Source: Candidatus Binataceae bacterium (lineage in GTDB: Bacteria; Desulfobacterota; Binatia; Binatales; Binataceae). From it: 64,000 nt of DNA. The notes beneath the pieces are model-generated. The model was given only the letters and a program-made list of their open reading frames with translations. It was not told where the DNA came from and searched no databases. Made by a program: the position numbers and the translations under genes. Shown in pieces: positions 2,430 to 60,494 of this stretch; the first letter of the stretch is position 1, and each line of letters opens with the position of its first letter. The stretch is from positions 64,210 through 128,209 of the forward strand of contig DASXFX010000054.1 of NCBI GenBank assembly GCA_036489375.1, in the 5' to 3' direction.

Positions 2430-2546
2430 AGGAACTCGACTCGCAGTTATGCTATGCTGCTGTCTGTAGGGTGCCTTTGGAAAGAGGGCCCCAGCTGACG
2501 GAAAGAAATCTGAAGCAAGAGAAAATTTGGCGCAAACGAACCCAAT
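2430..2546 (+). repeat. Recurrent intergenic element, copy 1 (candidate small transcription unit / sRNA or MITE-like repeat)
   Basis: 5' box TTATGCTATGCTGCTGTCTGTAG (mini-ORF 2449-2469, MLCCCL*) and 3' box GAAAATTTGGCGCAAACGAACCC (2521-2543). Shared with copies at 15715, 34485 and 50758. Confidence 0.6.
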
Positions 2547-2604: not shown

Positions 2605-3843
2605 TCAAAGCGCATCCAGCGCACGCGAAAACTCATCGAGCAGATCGCGCCAATGCTCAGTACCAACCGAAATGCGAACCAGGGACTCGGTAATGCCGGC
2701 GGCCGCAAACTCCTGCGCGGAAAGCTCGCTGTGCGTCGTCGTCATCGGATGACAGACCAGGGTCTCGACCGCACCCAGGCTCACCGCGTTCTTCGCGATC
2801 TTGAGCCTGCGCAGGAATTCGAAGGCGCCAGTCTTGCCATTCTTGACCTCCAGCGTCACCAGCGAGCCCGGGTAGTCGGTTTGAGCGTCGCGAATTCTGA
2901 CCTGCTCGGCATCGGTGAACAACGACGGATAAATTACGCGGTTGACCTGCGGATGCTTCGCCAGCTGCTCCGCAATTCTCTGCGCGTTCTTGCTCTGGCG
3001 GTTCATGCGCAAGGCCACGGTCGAGAGCCGCGAATCCAGGATCCAGCACTCGTCGGCCTGCAAAATGTTGCCGAGCAGCGCGCGCATTCCAGTCAGCGCC
3101 TGGATCAATTCCGGATCGGCCGCCAGCACGGCTCCTGCGAGCAAGTCGCTGAACCCGCCGAGAAACTTGGTCGCGGAGTAGATGACGAGGTCGGCGCCCC
3201 GGTTCAAAGGATGCTGGAAGGTCGGCCCCAGCAGCGTGTTATCGACTGCGAGCAGCGGCCGCTTCGGATGTCGTCGCGCCGCCGCCGCGGCTTGCGCGAT
3301 ATCGCTCATCATCAGGGTGGGATTGGCCGGAGTCTCGATCAGCACCAGCCTCGGATTTTCGCTCTGCTCGATCGCCTCGGTCATCGCTTTCGCGTCGCCA
3401 GCCGGCACCGCCTTCGTGCCGAACCCCAGCGGTTCGATAATCTGATGAATCAGGTGCTGAGTGCCGCCGTACAGTGGCTGCGTGTAGATCAACGAGCCCC
3501 CACGCTCCAGGAACGAGAGCATTACGGTGAAGATCGCGGCCATCCCGGAGTTGAATACCGCCGCGAAATTCGCACCTCGCTCCAGCGGCACCAGCTGTTC
3601 TTCCAGGATTTCGGCGTTGGGATGGTTCAACCGCGCGTAGATCAGATCCGGTCGGTCCTCCCCAATCGGCGAGATCTTGCCCAGGACGATTCCAAACGCC
3701 CGCTCCGCAGCCTCCGGACTTGGAAAGACGAAGGTCGAGCTGCGGTACACCGGTGGCCGCGCAGACCCGACCGACAATTTTGGATCGAAGCCTTTGTTGA
3801 GCACCGCGGTCTCTGGCCGCACGCGATAGGAAATCTTGGCCAT
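2605..3843 (-). CDS. Cys/Met-metabolism PLP-dependent enzyme (cystathionine gamma-synthase / methionine gamma-lyase family)
   Basis: Family-typical length and PLP-lysine motif SATKFLGG. GGAG lies 8 nt upstream of ATG 3843; the longest ORF would start at 3876. Confidence 0.8.
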   Translation of the reverse strand: MAKISYRVRPETAVLNKGFDPKLSVGSARPPVYRSSTFVFPSPEAAERAFGIVLGKISPIGEDRPDLIYARLNHPNAEILEEQLVPLERGANFAAVFNSGMAAIFTVMLSFLERGGSLIYTQPLYGGTQHLIHQIIEPLGFGTKAVPAGDAKAMTEAIEQSENPRLVLIETPANPTLMMSDIAQAAAAARRHPKRPLLAVDNTLLGPTFQHPLNRGADLVIYSATKFLGGFSDLLAGAVLAADPELIQALTGMRALLGNILQADECWILDSRLSTVALRMNRQSKNAQRIAEQLAKHPQVNRVIYPSLFTDAEQVRIRDAQTDYPGSLVTLEVKNGKTGAFEFLRRLKIAKNAVSLGAVETLVCHPMTTTHSELSAQEFAAAGITESLVRISVGTEHWRDLLDEFSRALDAL

Positions 3844-4046
3844 ATTTTTGCTCCAGTCGTCGGACGCCCGAGGCATTGCTGATGAACTTCATTCAAGCAC
3901 GCCTCCCGCGCGTCCGCACCATGCGAAATCCGCGGTCACCTCGCGACGTTTGGAGTTCACGTCCGACCTTGAGGGCCACCCGCCAACCTTCATTCTCGTC
4001 GTTCACTATCTCCTATAAGCCTGCTTCGTACCCCGTGAACGCAGCA

Positions 4047-7302: not shown

Positions 7303-7774
7303 GGCTACAGCCAATCATCAGATTAAGCCTACCCCGCTCATTACTCGCGTAGGTGGTATATCGCAGGTTCTAAGAGATAACTAATCAGTGAGCCACTACA
7401 CCCGTCGCACCCACTCTATAAGTCAATAGTGAAAAAGCTTGTCCACAACTGGTAGTCGTTATGACTCGCTGGTAAACGACTTGACGTTCTTCCGCCTCTA
7501 ACTCCCGAATCGGAAATTTCAACCTAACCTTCGGTTGCGTGAGCAATCGATGAAGAACCTTCGGGAGGATTCCGCGATGAAGACCCGTGTGTCCTTTCGA
7601 TCTCGACTGAGATTGGAGGCCGCAAAATGCCCAACACTCGCGAACTATTCAGCGATCCAGGATCCATCGAATGAGGCATTGCGGCGACCAGCGATCAGGG
7701 CGATGTACCTATCACGATTACCGACAGTGCGACGATACCTAGTGACGTCGCGCTGCCTCTCATTTCGATCATTG

Positions 7775-13860: not shown

Positions 13861-14274
13861 CCCCTCCACGATGTATTCTTTGTAGTCGCTCTCCCCGCCA
13901 TCTCGGCCCCTAACCGGTCGCCCCCGCGGTAAGCGCTCCCAGACTGACGAGCTCTGCTCCGCGCGCCGCCCGCGGAGATATGCTGAGCGGTCGTGGTGAG
14001 TACGATAACCCGCAAGGAATCTGCTCAACAGTGCATTTCTGCGCACGGATTCGTGCCCAAATCAGGCGCAATCGACACCGAAACCGCGGCTTAGCCTTAA
14101 TTTCTTTAGAAAACGCTACCGCCATCGCGGTATCGTGGGTGGGAGCAAGCGAATGCAAACAATATTTGATGGACCCCGGTTGGGCCCGCTAGCATAACTT
14201 CGCCTCCGCGAATCATGATCCTTCGAATATCGTGTTACCAATCTTCGAATGAAGTGAAGGATCTGAGGTCGAAG

Positions 14275-15081
14275 ATGTCTATTACAGTTGCAGAAATCAC
14301 TTCGGAGCAGGCGGATCGAATTAGGCTGCTCGATGAGGGGCAGTACACTGACCTCAAGAGCCGAGATATCGCGCCCAAAAAGCTGACCACCCATATTTCC
14401 GCTCTCGCCAATGCCGATGGCGGCGATTTATACATTGGAATCACGGACAAAGAACGAAAATGGGAAGGCTTTGAAAACGTTGAGGCTTCGAACGGACATC
14501 TTCAAATCTTCGAACTTCTGTTCCCGCTCGGAAATGATTTTCAATACGATTTCCTAAAATGTCCCTCTTATCCCGGGCTCGTCCTGCACATTCAGATAAC
14601 AAAGACGAAAGGCATCGTGAAAGCGTCGGATGGATTTCCATACATCCGCCGAGGCGCTCAGAGCATGATCGTCAATACCCCGGAAAAGAATCGACGCCTC
14701 GAACTGACCAAAGGAATTACATCCTTCGAGGACGACACGACCAATGCACCGAAAGAAATGATCGTTGATTCAGCCGTTACTAGAGATTTTATTCGTCAAG
14801 TGGTTCCCACGGCGGAACCTGAGCCTTGGCTGAGAAAGCAGTTTTTGCTTCGAAACGAACGCCCGACGGTGGCTGGGGGGCTTCTGTTTGCAGATGAGCC
14901 GCAGGCAGCTCTGCCTAAGCATTGTGGTATCAAGATTTATCGATATAAGACCCGTGAAGTCGCAGGCTTTCGCGAAGTTCTGGCCGATCACCCTTTGACG
15001 GTAGAGGGATGTCTGTACCAACAGATTCGCGATGCTGTGCAACGCACACAGGAAATAACCGAAAGCATCTCGGCTTTTTGA
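14275..15081 (+). CDS. AlbA_2 / Schlafen-like putative DNA-binding domain protein (short, lacks the usual C-terminal modules)
   Basis: EGQYTDLKSRDI...ISALANADGGDLYIGITD matches the AlbA_2 signature (E..E.K....i.A.aN..GG.l.iGi.D). GAGG lies 6 nt upstream of ATG 14275. Visibly lower GC than the flanks. Confidence 0.6.
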   Translation: MSITVAEITSEQADRIRLLDEGQYTDLKSRDIAPKKLTTHISALANADGGDLYIGITDKERKWEGFENVEASNGHLQIFELLFPLGNDFQYDFLKCPSYPGLVLHIQITKTKGIVKASDGFPYIRRGAQSMIVNTPEKNRRLELTKGITSFEDDTTNAPKEMIVDSAVTRDFIRQVVPTAEPEPWLRKQFLLRNERPTVAGGLLFADEPQAALPKHCGIKIYRYKTREVAGFREVLADHPLTVEGCLYQQIRDAVQRTQEITESISAF

Positions 15082-15100
15082 AAGGCACATTTACCTTTGT

Positions 15101-15340
15101 ATGCCGCGATCAACCATTACCAGTAAGGGTCAGACCACCATACCCGGCGAGATCAGGCGACATCTCAAGCTCAAGGCTGGCGACCGCATCGAGTTCATCG
15201 TCGAACCCGACGGACGGGTAGTCTTGATCCCGGCGACCGTGGACGCGAACGAGTTGAAAGGATTGCTAGCGCCGGCGCCGCGACGAGTAATGTTGGAACA
15301 AATGGAGACTACCGTCCGGAAACGAGCAGCACGCTGGTGA
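15101..15340 (+). CDS. AbrB/MazE/SpoVT-family type II antitoxin (VapB/PrlF-like)
   Basis: MPRSTITSKGQTTIPGEIRRHLKLKAGDRIEFIV is a canonical SpoVT-AbrB swapped-hairpin motif. Confidence 0.75.
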   Translation: MPRSTITSKGQTTIPGEIRRHLKLKAGDRIEFIVEPDGRVVLIPATVDANELKGLLAPAPRRVMLEQMETTVRKRAARW

Positions 15341-15591
15341 CCGGAATCGACCCAAACTCGTGGCCCCTTCACCCTGCTCTGAGGCTTCGTCCTGATAAGA
15401 ACGGCGCCGTAGCGCCACCGGAGCAACTCTACCGGCGCCCCCTCCGACCGCTGCCCGCAAACTCATTGACCTCCTTGTGATCATTCGATGATCGCGCACT
15501 CGCTAAGCCCCTCAACCCTTCGCTTACTCAACAGCAAAAGGTCTCAACAGAATCTCCCGCGACACTTTACCCTGCTTACCCAACGGGAAGT

Positions 15592-15618
15592 CTGAAACCT
15601 CGATGAGGTTTCAGTTTT
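15592..15618 (+). terminator. Rho-independent terminator
   Basis: CTGAAACCTC-gat-GAGGTTTCAG, a perfect 10-bp stem, followed by TTTT. Confidence 0.6.
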
Positions 15619-15714
15619 CCTGAAAAACCACCAGTTCCGCGCTCCTCAACCATCATCTGCCATTAACCCAAGGCTCTGGCATCCCACAGCCTTTCCCCTC
15701 GCCGAAAACTTTTT

Positions 15715-15857
15715 TTGGAAACACTGCGTCACTCTGCTATACTCTTTGTAGCATCGCGCTCCCCGCGCGAGTCCGGCTTCTCCACCGACTCATCTGCTGC
15801 GAAAGTCGGAAACCAGCCTCGAAGAGAGCACCTCTTTTGTGCGAAACGAACCCATTT
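15715..15857 (+). repeat. Recurrent intergenic element, copy 2, with a sigma-70-like promoter
   Basis: TTGGAA(15715-20)-N17-TATACT(15738-43). 5' box CTGCTATACTCTTTGTAG (15734-15751). Hairpin CCGACT...AGTCGG. 3' box TTTTGTGCGAAACGAACCC (15835-15853). Confidence 0.6.
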
Positions 15858-15931
15858 TCACCGCGCAAACCTACTCCAGACAGCTACTGCGGAGACGCAA
15901 GCGGTCGATCGCCAATCTGGGAAATAGTGGA

Positions 15932-34453: not shown

Positions 34454-34484
34454 ACCACGATTGTTGTGGATAAGTCCTACCCAT

Positions 34485-34663
34485 AGGAACCATTAGATAT
34501 GTTATACTGCTTCTGGTAGTTGCTTCGGTTTTGACCCACAGAATGTAAACCGCGGTAATGGTCGGGTCCACGGGCGTCAGATACCAACTTCGGCTCAGGT
34601 GCGTGTCGTTTCGGGATTCGCATTCCCAGCAACAGAGAAATTTGCACAAACGAACCCAATTTC
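34485..34663 (+). repeat. Recurrent intergenic element, copy 3
   Basis: 5' box ATGTTATACTGCTTCTGGTAG (mini-ORF 34499-34519, MLYCFW*), about 117-nt core, 3' box GAAATTTGCACAAACGAACCC (34637-34657). Confidence 0.6.
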
Positions 34664-34687
34664 CCGACCCTCTGCCCTCTTCGCCCC

Positions 34688-35830
34688 TCACTCCAGTCCT
34701 TGCTCGTCCGATTTTCGAGTTACCAGGTGACAGGAATAGGTCTTGATTACCAGCCACACCTCCTCTCCCGCCTCAAGCATGAGTTCCTGGCACGCGCCCG
34801 GCGTCATATGGACTTCGAAACTCACCCCCGCCTGCACCGTGACGATGACGGTAACGCCTTCGCGCCGCAGCGACATCACGCGCCCCTTAAGCGTGTTGCG
34901 GGCGCTCAGACCCACTGGCTTGCTGTTCGCGATCATGATGTCTCCAGCTCTTATCGCCACCCGCACCCCTTCGCCCGGCTGCACCGCCGCCAGTGGAACC
35001 TCCAGGATGACCTCGCTGCCGCCCACACCGCAATTCATCGTGCCTTGCGACTCACTCACGGATTGGACCGTCGCTTCGAAGACGTTCTCGAATCCCACCA
35101 GGCTCGCGACGATCTCATGCCGCGGCGCATTGAGAACCTCCTGCGGAGTGCCCTGCGCCAGGATCCGGCCGCCGTCCAGGACCACCACGCGTTCGCCCAG
35201 CGCAAAGGCTTCACTCACCGCATGGGTAACGTAGACGATCGGAATTTCGTGACTCGCGTTCCACCCGCGCAAGTCCTCGATGATCTCGGACTTGGTCAAC
35301 GCGTCCAATGCGGTCAGCGGTTCGTCCAGCAGCAGCACCATCGGGTCGGTGACCAGCGATCGCGCGAGGGCGACGCGTTGGCGTTCTCCGCCCGAAAGCT
35401 CGTTGGGCTTGCGTCCCCGCAGTTGAGCGATTCGAAAGGACTCCAGTATGGTGGCAGTCCTTTCCTCACGCATCGTCGTCGGCATCTTTGCCAGCCCGTA
35501 TTTCACGTTTTGTTCGACCGTAAGATGCGGAAACAGCGCGAGATTCTGGAAAAGATATCCTACCGACCGCAATCGCGCCGGAACGTTGACTCCGGCCGCC
35601 ATATCGAACAGTACGCGCGCGCCCAATGCGATATGGCCAGACTCCGGCGCGATCAGCCCCGCAATACAGTTCAGCAGCGTGCTTTTCCCAGACCCGGACG
35701 GTCCAAACAGTATTGTAATGCCGGCGCCCGCCTCGAATTCGGCCGCGAGCGAAAAATCCTTCCCCAGGGTCTTGCCGATGCGAACTGACAGACCGATCGC
35801 GCCAGCCAACGGACGCCCCCCGTCTCTCAT
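34688..35830 (-). CDS. modC: Molybdate ABC transporter ATP-binding protein with C-terminal TOBE domains
   Basis: Walker A GPSGSGKST, signature LSGGERQRVALARSL, TOBE-like C-terminus. Sits in the modA-modB-modC order. Confidence 0.85.
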   Translation of the reverse strand: MRDGGRPLAGAIGLSVRIGKTLGKDFSLAAEFEAGAGITILFGPSGSGKSTLLNCIAGLIAPESGHIALGARVLFDMAAGVNVPARLRSVGYLFQNLALFPHLTVEQNVKYGLAKMPTTMREERTATILESFRIAQLRGRKPNELSGGERQRVALARSLVTDPMVLLLDEPLTALDALTKSEIIEDLRGWNASHEIPIVYVTHAVSEAFALGERVVVLDGGRILAQGTPQEVLNAPRHEIVASLVGFENVFEATVQSVSESQGTMNCGVGGSEVILEVPLAAVQPGEGVRVAIRAGDIMIANSKPVGLSARNTLKGRVMSLRREGVTVIVTVQAGVSFEVHMTPGACQELMLEAGEEVWLVIKTYSCHLVTRKSDEQGLE

Positions 35831-50376: not shown

Positions 50377-50757
50377 GCCGCACCCGAGGTGGTCTCGAGT
50401 GCGGTAATCCGTACCGAATGGACTGAAACGAGCACCTTTAACACCATCATTGAACAACTATCGGCTCTGTTTTCGGCGTGATTTGCAGGTTAGCGGCCTC
50501 CAAGTGGTGAGTAATGCGTGCAATTTCCGTCATTGGTCGTGCAACCGTCGATAATGAGTCGGCAAGTAGAAGCCTCGTGCGTGCTGACCGCCCGATGGAG
50601 GATTCCGGCGGAATCGGTGGTGAGATTAGCACTCATGCAGCTTAGCGCGGTGCAATTCCTGAGCGTAGGCCATTGGAGTGGGCTGCGGCCGTCTGGTCGA
50701 TAGCCGGGGCGGGTAGCGCGAGATCAGTTTGCGCTATTTGCCGGCTGGAGGCTTTCT

Positions 50758-50855
50758 AGGCGGGTTCGTTTCGCATTTTCCGCGCCAACCTGATGCGTAA
50801 TCTCGGCGCGGATACTACAGAAAGCATGATAGCATAACTCGTGGTACCAGAACAA
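50758..50855 (-). repeat. Recurrent intergenic element, copy 4 (inverted orientation)
   Basis: The minus strand reads TTATGCTATCATGCTTTCTGTAG (mini-ORF 50835-50815, MLSCFL*). Then hairpin TCCGCGCC...GGCGCGGA, then GAAAATGCGAAACGAACCC (50780-50762). Confidence 0.6.
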
Positions 50856-50869
50856 CCACGTGCACGACA

Positions 50870-51313
50870 ACCGCGTCGACGAGCCGCGCTTTGGAGTGAT
50901 GCGATGGGCGGTCACGATCGGGAGGCGCAGGCTCCCGATCGATCAACGAGCCGCGCTTTGAAGTGACGCGAGTGGCGATCCGATTTGCGCCGAGGGCACG
51001 CCACCGGTTCGGGTGACGCGCGGCCGATCGCGGCGACTTGTGGTCACGATCGGGAGCTTCTTTTTGGGTCGGGGTGACGCGCGACCTATCGGGAGGTTCG
51101 AGTCAGCATCGATCAGTTTCACTGACTGGTGCGACCTGTAATCACGACCAAGGCGATTCAAGCAAGGGATCGATCGTCTTCGACCATTGGTGGTCACGAC
51201 CAGGCGGTTCGAGCAAGGGATCGACCGGCTGAGCTGCCCGCAGTTGCGATTGGCAGCCTCGAGCAAGGGATCGATCGCCTTCGACCATGGTGGTCACGAT
51301 CGGGCGGTTCGAG
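50870..51313. repeat. Degenerate tandem repeat array (units about 50-130 bp) reiterating the last ~25 bp plus ~30 bp downstream of the adjacent LLM gene
   Basis: GGTCACGA(T/C)C(G/A)GG anchors at 50910, 51042, 51141 (variant), 51192 and 51292. TTCGAGCAAGGGATCGATCG(T/C)CTTCGACCAT(T)GGT units align to the gene tail TTCGAGCTAACGATCGATCAGCTTCGCCCATTGATC. Confidence 0.7.
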
Positions 51314-52168
51314 CTAACGATCGATCAGCTTCGCCCATTGATCGACGTTCGCCATCACTTTGTCGCGGGTCTCCGGCGGAACCCAGCTTGAAACATAATC
51401 GACGCCGGCTTCGACAAAACGTGCGAGTGCCCGGCGATCCTGATCGAGCTTACCGGTTGGCTCATAGTAGGCGCCGATCGTGAGAGTGCGAGGTTCGCGG
51501 GCGGACTGTGAGAGTACTTCGCGGAATTCGGCGAGTTTGGCGAAAAAGGCGTCGCCGCGCACCGTCGGCATCCAGCCGTCGCAATAGGCGATGGCGGCAC
51601 GCATCGCGGCGGGCGCCTGACCACCCATGATGATTGGCGGATAGGGTTTCTGCACGGGCTTGGGATAGGACCAGATTGAATCGAAGTTGACGAAATGGCC
51701 GTGATAGGCGGGCTCTTCCTGAGTCCAAATCGCCTTCATCGCCTCGATGCGCTCGCGCATCAGGCGGCGGCGGCTTTTGAATTCGGTGCCGTGATTCGCC
51801 ATCTCTTCCACGTTCCAGCCGGCGCCGACTCCGAAGACGAAGCGCCCATTCGAGAGCAGGTCGAGGCTGGCGACTTCCTTAGCCGTGACGATCGGGTCGC
51901 GCTCGATCACGAGACAGACGCCGGTTCCGAGCTTGAGGGTTTTGGTGACGGCCGCAGCGGTGGCCAGCGCGACGAAAGGATCGAGCGTGTGCGAGTACTG
52001 GGGCGGCAGATCGCGCATGCCGGTCGCGGGCACGGTCAGCCGTGAAGTGGGAATGTGCGTGTGTTCGGCGACGAGCAAGGAATCGAAGCCGTTAGCTTCG
52101 GCGGCCCGCGCCAGATCGTCCAACCGGACGGTGAAGTCGGTGGGAAAGAACGATAGTCCGTATTTCAT
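51314..52168 (-). CDS. LLM-class F420-dependent oxidoreductase
   Basis: MKYGLSFFPTD...GFDSLLVAEHTHIP...DPFVALATAAAVTKTLKLGTGVCLVIERDPIVTAKEVASLDLLSNGRF, typical of the F420-dependent LLM subfamily. Confidence 0.8.
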   Translation of the reverse strand: MKYGLSFFPTDFTVRLDDLARAAEANGFDSLLVAEHTHIPTSRLTVPATGMRDLPPQYSHTLDPFVALATAAAVTKTLKLGTGVCLVIERDPIVTAKEVASLDLLSNGRFVFGVGAGWNVEEMANHGTEFKSRRRLMRERIEAMKAIWTQEEPAYHGHFVNFDSIWSYPKPVQKPYPPIIMGGQAPAAMRAAIAYCDGWMPTVRGDAFFAKLAEFREVLSQSAREPRTLTIGAYYEPTGKLDQDRRALARFVEAGVDYVSSWVPPETRDKVMANVDQWAKLIDR

Positions 52169-60353: not shown

Positions 60354-60494
60354 GTCGCTCTTACCTTTGATTGATTTTCGCGGCGAGCCGTACTTCTGGT
60401 CACGACGCTTACCGGACGCGTACGATCATCGAGATCCAAGCTACACGATCTGCAGTCAAATGATTTCGCTTGCGGCACCGAGAACCAATTTCCC

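Follow-up and report, generated by a model that had tools for sequence, protein, structure and literature searches.

The question raised by this locus is whether four gene-free spacers of the window (the whole stretch of DNA analysed, 64,000 nucleotides) carry members of one family of elements and, if they do, whether that family works as RNA, as a peptide or as DNA. A sequence-only reading had proposed a four-copy family of two boxes with mutually unrelated cores between them. Searching both strands, we found exactly four exact matches to the 10-mer of the 3′ box, AAACGAACCC, at 2534 (+), 15844 (+), 34648 (+) and 50771 (−), and exactly four matches to the 5′ box pattern TGYTAT-N6/9-KGTAG, at 2450 (+), 15735 (+), 34500 (+) and 50834 (−). 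Every 5′ box lies on the same strand as one 3′ box and upstream of it, 43–128 nt away; we name the four pairs c1 to c4 and denote loci of relatives or metagenomes by L-numbers. The distance from GTAG to AAACG is 64, 92, 128 and 43 nt in c1 to c4, which corrects the core lengths of 51, 83, 117 and 34 nt given before. Alignment of one core with another proved impossible, confirming that the cores are unrelated in sequence. The 5′ box reaches about 5 nt farther upstream than first described (RGTTA), and the 3′ box has the core AAACGAACCCAWT, preceded by a U-rich stretch.

Could such likeness arise by chance among AT-richer intergenic spacers? With one mismatch allowed, the enrichment of the AAACGAACCC 10-mer alone was not significant, a point in favour of chance, and the signal therefore resides in the exact matches and in their pairing. 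The joint two-box pattern with a narrower gap was observed twice and had no match in 100 shuffles, the shuffle expectation for paired exact boxes was 0, and no lone 5′ or 3′ box was found in about 1.6 Mb of Binataceae DNA, the boxes being paired in every copy. Independent copies in other contigs and orthologous boxes conserved well above the neutral rate, both described below, likewise argue against chance, which the comparison with random expectation refutes and to which we assign practically no probability. It also holds that no credible coding sequence covers any copy: no Pfam-supported one overlaps, although ORFs of 63–70 aa do span c2 and c4. A protein-coding reading was rejected, with box-to-box frames (mod 3) that differ between copies and orthologues that carry 1-nt indels; since the relative frames of the boxes differ, the ORFs spanning c2 and c4 could not encode a common peptide.

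The first two copies are laid out as follows. At c1, an upstream module consisting of the perfect DnaA box TGTGGATAA (2408–2416, +) and then AGGAAC (2430–2435) precedes the 5′ box AGTTATGCTATGCTGCTGTCTGTAG (2445–2469, +), in which TGn and TATGCT form an extended −10-like sequence followed by GCTGTCTGTAG. The variable core (2470–2525, +) has predicted hairpins, with a z-score of −2.6 for the 68-nt stretch from GTAG to AAACG (2466–2533), and is followed by the 3′ box TTTGGCGCAAACGAACCCAAT (2526–2546, +) and by a C-rich, G-poor tract (2547–2603, +; C–G skew +0.41 over 2544–2603). Two minus-strand genes flank c1, encoding an HTH_27 regulator and a Cys/Met PLP enzyme. The 3′ box points toward the 3′ end of the PLP-enzyme gene (2605–3876, minus strand), and the tract ends in a hairpin plus TTCTCTT beside the stop of this convergent gene. 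At c2, a promoter-like region (15715–15751, +) runs from TTGGAA through a 17-nt spacer to TG-n-TATACT and then CTTTGTAG, the 5′ box itself (15735–15751) being 3 nt shorter than in the other copies. The variable core (15752–15831, +) leads to the 3′ box block CTCTTTTGTGCGAAACGAACCCATTTTCACCGC (15832–15864, +), and the whole unit lies after an AbrB-type antitoxin gene, with the 3′ end of a DUF2252 gene ahead of it.

The third copy sits between lysR and modC, two convergent genes whose spacer it fills. Its upstream module (34465–34490, +), with the DnaA box TGTGGATAA at 34465–34473 and AGGAAC at 34485–34490, is followed by the 5′ box AGATATGTTATACTGCTTCTGGTAG (34495–34519, +), the variable core (34520–34637, +), the 3′ box AAATTTGCACAAACGAACCCAATTT (34638–34662, +) and the C-rich, G-poor tract (34663–34717, +; C–G skew +0.54 over 34658–34717), which runs into the 3′ end of modC (34688–35830, minus strand). 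As a separate observation, four C-runs (CCC, CCC, CCC, CCCC) at 34663–34687 make up a G-quadruplex-type motif on the sense strand of modC (minus), just past its stop; this motif is not conserved in L083. The fourth copy is on the minus strand, with the 5′ box AGTTATGCTATCATGCTTTCTGTAG at 50815–50839, a core at 50772–50814 that contains the strong hairpin CCGCGCC...GGCGCGG (z = −3.5), the 3′ box AAAATGCGAAACGAACCCGCC at 50759–50779 and the C-rich tract at 50702–50758 (C–G skew +0.26 over 50702–50761). The same-strand gene marC lies about 385 nt farther on, and the kilobase upstream of c4 is rich in repeats. Read on the minus strand, 50860–51340 holds about eight degenerate tandem copies of a unit of about 50 nt (GCTCGAACCGCC-YGRTCGTGACCACCA-WGGTCGAAGRCGATCGATCCCTT), which in the relative L100 is single-copy and directly follows the stop of a luciferase-like gene. 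The cumulative GC skew of the window has its minimum near 44–48 kb, and c1–c3 (+) to its left and c4 (−) to its right all point there; with four copies in 64 kb this orientation is not significant, and neither a dnaA gene nor a cluster of DnaA boxes was found there.

Orthologous copies revealed which parts of the unit are constrained. The c3 element sits at the same site in the relatives L083/L084, L094 and L095 (91% ModC identity), where 23 of 24 positions of the 5′ box and 21 of 22 of the 3′ box are identical to the window sequence. The c3 core, by comparison, is 71–78% identical and carries 1-nt indels, and the fourfold-degenerate sites of the flanking modC and lysR are 75–79% identical. 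Consistently, c2 is found at the same site in L098 (92% DUF2252 identity), where the 3′ box lies in a perfect block of 33/33 identical nucleotides; fourfold sites are 75% identical in this comparison. Across the c2 and c3 orthologues the boxes are 95–100% conserved. Since box identity is high and c3 core identity is at the level of fourfold sites, purifying selection acts on the two boxes only; the c3 core evolves at the neutral rate and, as the 1-nt indels between orthologues indicate, is non-coding. In the ancestral arrangement, c2 and c3 each take up the gap between a pair of convergent genes.

The sites themselves come and go. In more distant relatives (75–77% ModC identity) both lysR and the c3 element are absent. 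Next to MetY, c1 is absent in L003, L068 and others among the 80 species, in which the downstream gene differs and homology stops at the stop codon. L100 (95% MarC identity) has no counterpart of the 713-nt segment 50562–51274, which comprises the repeats, c4 and about 196 nt, and it demonstrably underwent a deletion at this site. Some lineages have thus kept their copies while others have lost or gained them, even among close relatives.

A scan guided by proteins assigned the window to Candidatus Binatus/Binataceae. The search for more copies that had been suggested earlier had a mixed outcome. Neither box was detected by exact match, regular expression or profile HMM in 80 other Binataceae loci, one per species (1.44 Mb), while a joint-pattern scan of metagenome contigs yielded two further independent copies, L090 and L091/L093, the latter being one locus in two strains; the gene contexts of both differ from those of the window copies. 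A fourth joint-pattern match, L092 3362–3450, was judged to be chance: its GC content is 45% against about 59% for the window, and it has no similarity to any Binataceae locus. The plasmid and phage collections searched by BLAST gave only chance 33-nt matches inside dihydrofolate reductase genes, a scan of viral contigs gave no copies, and the approximately 1.6 kb beyond the window edges contained no new copy. As to named RNA families, the absence of a recognizable one was borne out, with no Rfam match at gathering score over the window and none at E ≤ 5 overlapping the elements in four loci. No tRNA or tmRNA is present in the window. A literature search for the box sequences and for the NusA BoxC RNA (GAACUCAAUAG) returned only primers and unrelated papers; a possible likeness to this RNA and to boxA was given no weight. 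With copies in metagenomes and none in the other collections, the family is real and extends beyond the genome of the window, though not outside a narrow clade of Candidatus Binatus. It is a previously undescribed family of short non-coding units of this lineage, each composed of a promoter-like box, a free spacer, a conserved box and a C-rich tract.

What the 5′ box might do is suggested by the way it varies. Six independent copies and three orthologues were compared; in these nine sequences the variable positions are the n of TGn and positions 4–5 of the hexamer, with hexamer T1, A2, T3 and T6 kept in 8–9 of the nine. TGn plus TATNNT is present in all six independent copies and in two of the three orthologues, the exception being L098 with TGG TCTACT. 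The 5′ box is thus degenerate at those positions at which an extended −10 promoter (TGnTAnnnT) is, and we treat it as a putative one. A −35 hexamer is recognizable only in c2, where TTGGAA stands 17 nt from the TATACT with its upstream TG, and none was found for c1, c3 or c4; extended −10 promoters can do without one. Although L098 has lost the critical A of the −10 sequence, its 3′ box block is perfectly conserved, suggesting that the 3′ box may work without this promoter. The conserved tail of the 5′ box, GCTnTnTGTAG, spans the expected start site, and the contiguous 24-nt conservation exceeds what a promoter alone needs; being more conserved than a promoter requires, the tail may double as an operator.

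The same stretch contains the ATG...TAG mini-ORFs described earlier, which hold up in five of the six independent copies, in frame and always ending in TAG, and fail in c2, which has no ATG and no start codon. They underlie a reading in which a leader-peptide unit, with a six-codon Cys/Phe-rich mini-ORF (MLCCCL and the like), couples ribosome stalling to Rho termination at the C-rich tract. In keeping with it, the frame varies in length by 3 nt only, synonymous differences occur (CTA/TTA, TTC/TTT, CTG/TTG) and a rut-like tract lies downstream. However, the start codon is missing in L098 as well as in c2, no Shine–Dalgarno sequence occurs at a consistent spacing, and the changes at codons 3, 5 and 6 are non-conservative. 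Every copy stops with TAG, and the G before it is conserved too, suggesting constraint at the level of nucleotides. No promoter is evident upstream of the ATG, which would itself fall outside the transcript if the −10 sequence is used. Furthermore, the next downstream gene is convergent in c1, c2, c3 and L090, that is, in at least four of the six loci, leaving nothing co-directional to regulate, and only c4 has a co-directional gene downstream. A leader peptide is therefore very improbable, and this explanation by the sequence-only reading is abandoned.

Upstream of the 5′ box, two copies may receive an additional input. The sequence TGTGGATAA represents the only two perfect DnaA boxes in the 64 kb, both located 26–34 nt upstream of a 5′ box, that of c1 and that of c3, and on the same strand; each is then followed by AGGAAC and neither is in register with the 5′ box. 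The whole c3 module is kept in all four orthologues. No such box is present at c2, c4, L090 or L091. The consensus box expected near a DnaA-controlled promoter, TTATCCACA, is perfectly matched upstream of c1 and c3 only, and the TGTGGATAA 9-mer also occurs upstream of dnaA in L055 (6568–6576).

Besides the −10 pattern, the region behind the 3′ box gave a further, independent indication that it is the sense strand that counts. In each of the six independent copies, C is abundant and G scarce over the 60 nt that follow the box, with C–G skews of +0.20 to +0.54 and a mean of +0.33 (P < 1e-5 by resampling); control regions after gene stops have a skew of 0.02 ± 0.15, and the cores do not exceed +0.09. 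No intrinsic terminator was found in any copy or sense-strand tail, c1 alone having, by reading, its weak hairpin with TTCTCTT. Because no intrinsic terminator follows, we infer that this strand-specific tract, which matches a rut-type site in RNA of sense orientation, may serve as a Rho loading site.

Folding, in contrast to sequence composition, gave little that is common to the copies. Core folding z-scores range from −3.5 (c4) to +1.1 (c3), with c1 and c4 alone folding better than their shuffles. A proposed covariance check was carried out on four c3 orthologues only, and in these few sequences neither net covariation nor a shared fold was seen: RNAalifold returned a covariation term of +0.56, with two of 35 pairs compensatory and several broken. 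A long-range c3 helix found by eye (AGUCGAG/CUCGACU) was rejected, as its changes are one-sided only and two of its pairs are broken in the window sequence. The 3′ box, though mostly unpaired (0.42–0.99), is so to no greater degree than in shuffles, and no complementary target sites for it were found in the window.

The convergent neighbours raise the possibility that the element serves the opposite strand, as a 3′-UTR, terminator or insulator of the convergent gene, with the 3′ box read as AUUGGGUUCGUUU. In c1, c2, c3 and L090 there is indeed a Pfam-supported convergent gene whose stop is followed, 31–100 nt on, by the 3′ box, and the convergent setting of the ancestral c2 and c3 agrees with this. 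We nevertheless consider it quite unlikely: c4 has no convergent gene, no hairpin plus U-tract is found in that direction, the conserved TGnTAnnnT would be meaningless there, and the core is neutral, whereas the stems of a terminator would be conserved or covary.

A role at the level of DNA has more to commend it. On this view the boxes would mark points of accessory-DNA exchange, either as sites of recombination or attachment or as the asymmetric ends of a mobile element now defunct, and their likeness to a promoter would be secondary. Here the earlier proposal of decayed relics is instructive. The one at 13871–13885 is real: a partial duplicate of the c2 5′ box plus the first approximately 25 nt of the core extends over 13871–13912 (+), 8 nt past the stop of an MFS gene, and aligns to the first approximately 40 nt of c2 and of the c2 orthologue, the sequence TCTTTGTAG occurring only here and in c2. 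The two others, 7449–7529 and 60392–60493, have only short strings in common with the boxes (CTGGTAGT; GAACCAATTTCCC) and are detected by none of the profile searches. Between the relic as left border and c2 as right border lies an accessory insert of about 1.85 kb (13886–15731) that is absent from L098. It contains an SLFN/AlbA_2-domain gene (14215–15081), an AbrB/MazE-type antitoxin gene (15101–15340) and an apparently truncated, decayed toxin partner (15337–15480). In its content the insert resembles a small defence or toxin–antitoxin islet.

This duplicate flanking an insert is the main evidence for a DNA-level role, and an island that took a small gene as its target and regenerated it, as happens with tRNA genes, would explain it just as well. 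The position of c1 and c3 exactly where synteny with other Binataceae ends, the location of c4 inside the 713-nt segment missing from L100 and the confinement of the family to a narrow clade point in the same direction. Against these stand the demonstrable deletion in L100, the lack of any inverted or direct repetition between the two boxes, the unrelated cores, and the absence of target-site duplications around whole copies and of a recombinase or transposase gene nearby. Moreover, c2 and c3 have stayed at the same site, with their boxes constrained, over about 25% neutral divergence, and neither a strand-specific C-rich tract nor −10-type degeneracy is expected of a recombination site. Taken together, we regard the DNA-level reading as rather unlikely. 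On the same evidence, namely no inverted ends, no target-site duplications in the flanks that had been singled out for inspection, cores that do not align and two copies stable in position, the suggested MITE- or REP-like mobile repeat is not sustained. Xer/dif-like, Tn3-IR-like and attC-like readings of the boxes were dropped by eye, the partner arm or inverted copy being missing. An integron attC site was rejected: RYYYAAC and GTTRRRY are absent at the box ends, and the copies are scattered over both strands with no integrase nearby.

Among the explanations put forward earlier, a family of small promoter-bearing RNA genes with a common 3′ motif is the best supported, by the −10 degeneracy, the constrained boxes, the neutral core and the strand-specific C-rich tract. 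We tentatively propose, at somewhat less than even confidence and from sequence features, that each copy is an orphan non-coding transcription unit whose product, a candidate sRNA or antisense RNA, is terminated by Rho. The 5′ box would act as an extended −10 promoter (TGnTAnnnT), the conserved GCTnTnTGTAG would cover the start site and probably act as a shared operator, and DnaA could provide an optional input where a DnaA box lies upstream. From a start at or close to GTAG, transcription would cross a spacer of indifferent sequence, and the transcript would then expose its sole constrained RNA segment, a U-rich stretch followed by GCGMAAACGAACCCAAU. The C-rich, G-poor tract of at least 60 nt might load Rho and end the RNA; in at least four of the six loci this would happen short of the convergent gene's 3′ end or only slightly within it. 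The working part of such an RNA would be the conserved 3′ box, a motif of 13–20 nt that may be a single-stranded seed pairing with some target or a motif bound by a protein. Several results weigh against this proposal: intrinsic terminators and a common fold are lacking, the 3′ box is no more open than in shuffles and has no complementary sites in the window, a −35 hexamer is seen in c2 only, the 24-nt conservation is longer than a promoter calls for, copies come and go among close relatives, and L098 combines a −10 sequence without its key A with an intact 3′ box block.

A related reading, which we hold to be unlikely, places the function in the act of transcription or in factor loading and not in the RNA sequence: a regulated, partly DnaA-linked promoter would fire toward the 3′ end of the neighbouring gene and be stopped by a sequence-specific box plus a Rho-loading tract, forming a self-limiting module of a new kind, other than a conventional sRNA gene. 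If this were true, the module could insulate or tune convergent genes, or mark integration sites of accessory DNA.

Binatota is, to our knowledge, a widespread soil phylum without a cultured member, and we know of no non-coding RNA or regulatory element described for it. The family offers a sequence-defined handle in this phylum, with two boxes under purifying selection, a putative consensus form of the promoter in this lineage and a candidate signal for a Rho-dependent stop. Should the 3′ box of the proposed sRNAs be a seed or protein-binding motif, the family would represent a first regulon-level RNA system in Binatota; should the DNA-level reading be true, the boxes would mark hot spots of gene exchange.

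The family compares with known systems as follows. Genomic islands integrate into tRNA, tmRNA or small RNA genes and leave a partial duplicate, and the c2 insert similarly lies between an intact unit and a partial duplicate of about 40 nt; here, however, the duplicate is the 5′ part and not the 3′ part, the insert has no integrase, and the case is single. The Correia/NEMIS elements of Neisseria are promoter-bearing MITEs with terminal inverted repeats, target-site duplications and a common internal sequence. Like them, the present units are short dispersed intergenic repeats with −10-like boxes, but none of these three features was found in the copies. REP/BIME elements have GTAG followed by an imperfect palindrome and often lie between convergent genes, resembling the invariant GTAG, the hairpin after GTAG in some copies and the location in spacers downstream of genes; in contrast to them, the palindromes are not common to the copies, only c1 and c4 folding better than shuffles, the conserved sequence lies upstream of GTAG, and there is no arrangement in inverted pairs. 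The family is thus not a member of any Rfam family, nor of the MITEs, REPs or attC sites, each comparison failing at a defining feature.

Two other systems come closer. Rho-dependent terminators and attenuators with rut sites, such as lambda tR1 and the tna leader, share with the units a C-rich, G-poor, weakly structured tract of at least 60 nt downstream of a promoter and the absence of a hairpin/U-tract terminator; unlike rut sites, which have no conserved box, the tract here opens with a box of 13–20 nt. OmrA and OmrB of enterobacteria are sibling sRNAs with conserved ends and a divergent middle, and they too are dispersed or paralogous units in which a common promoter region and a short conserved segment enclose a divergent stretch. 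The differences are that the conserved 5′ part here would be mostly promoter and not a 5′ seed of the RNA, that no intrinsic terminator or Hfq-type 3′ hairpin is present, and that the core, which differs threefold in length between copies, is fully neutral. In overall layout, judged by analogy, the family would resemble sibling sRNAs of the OmrA/OmrB type combined with a Rho-dependent stop.
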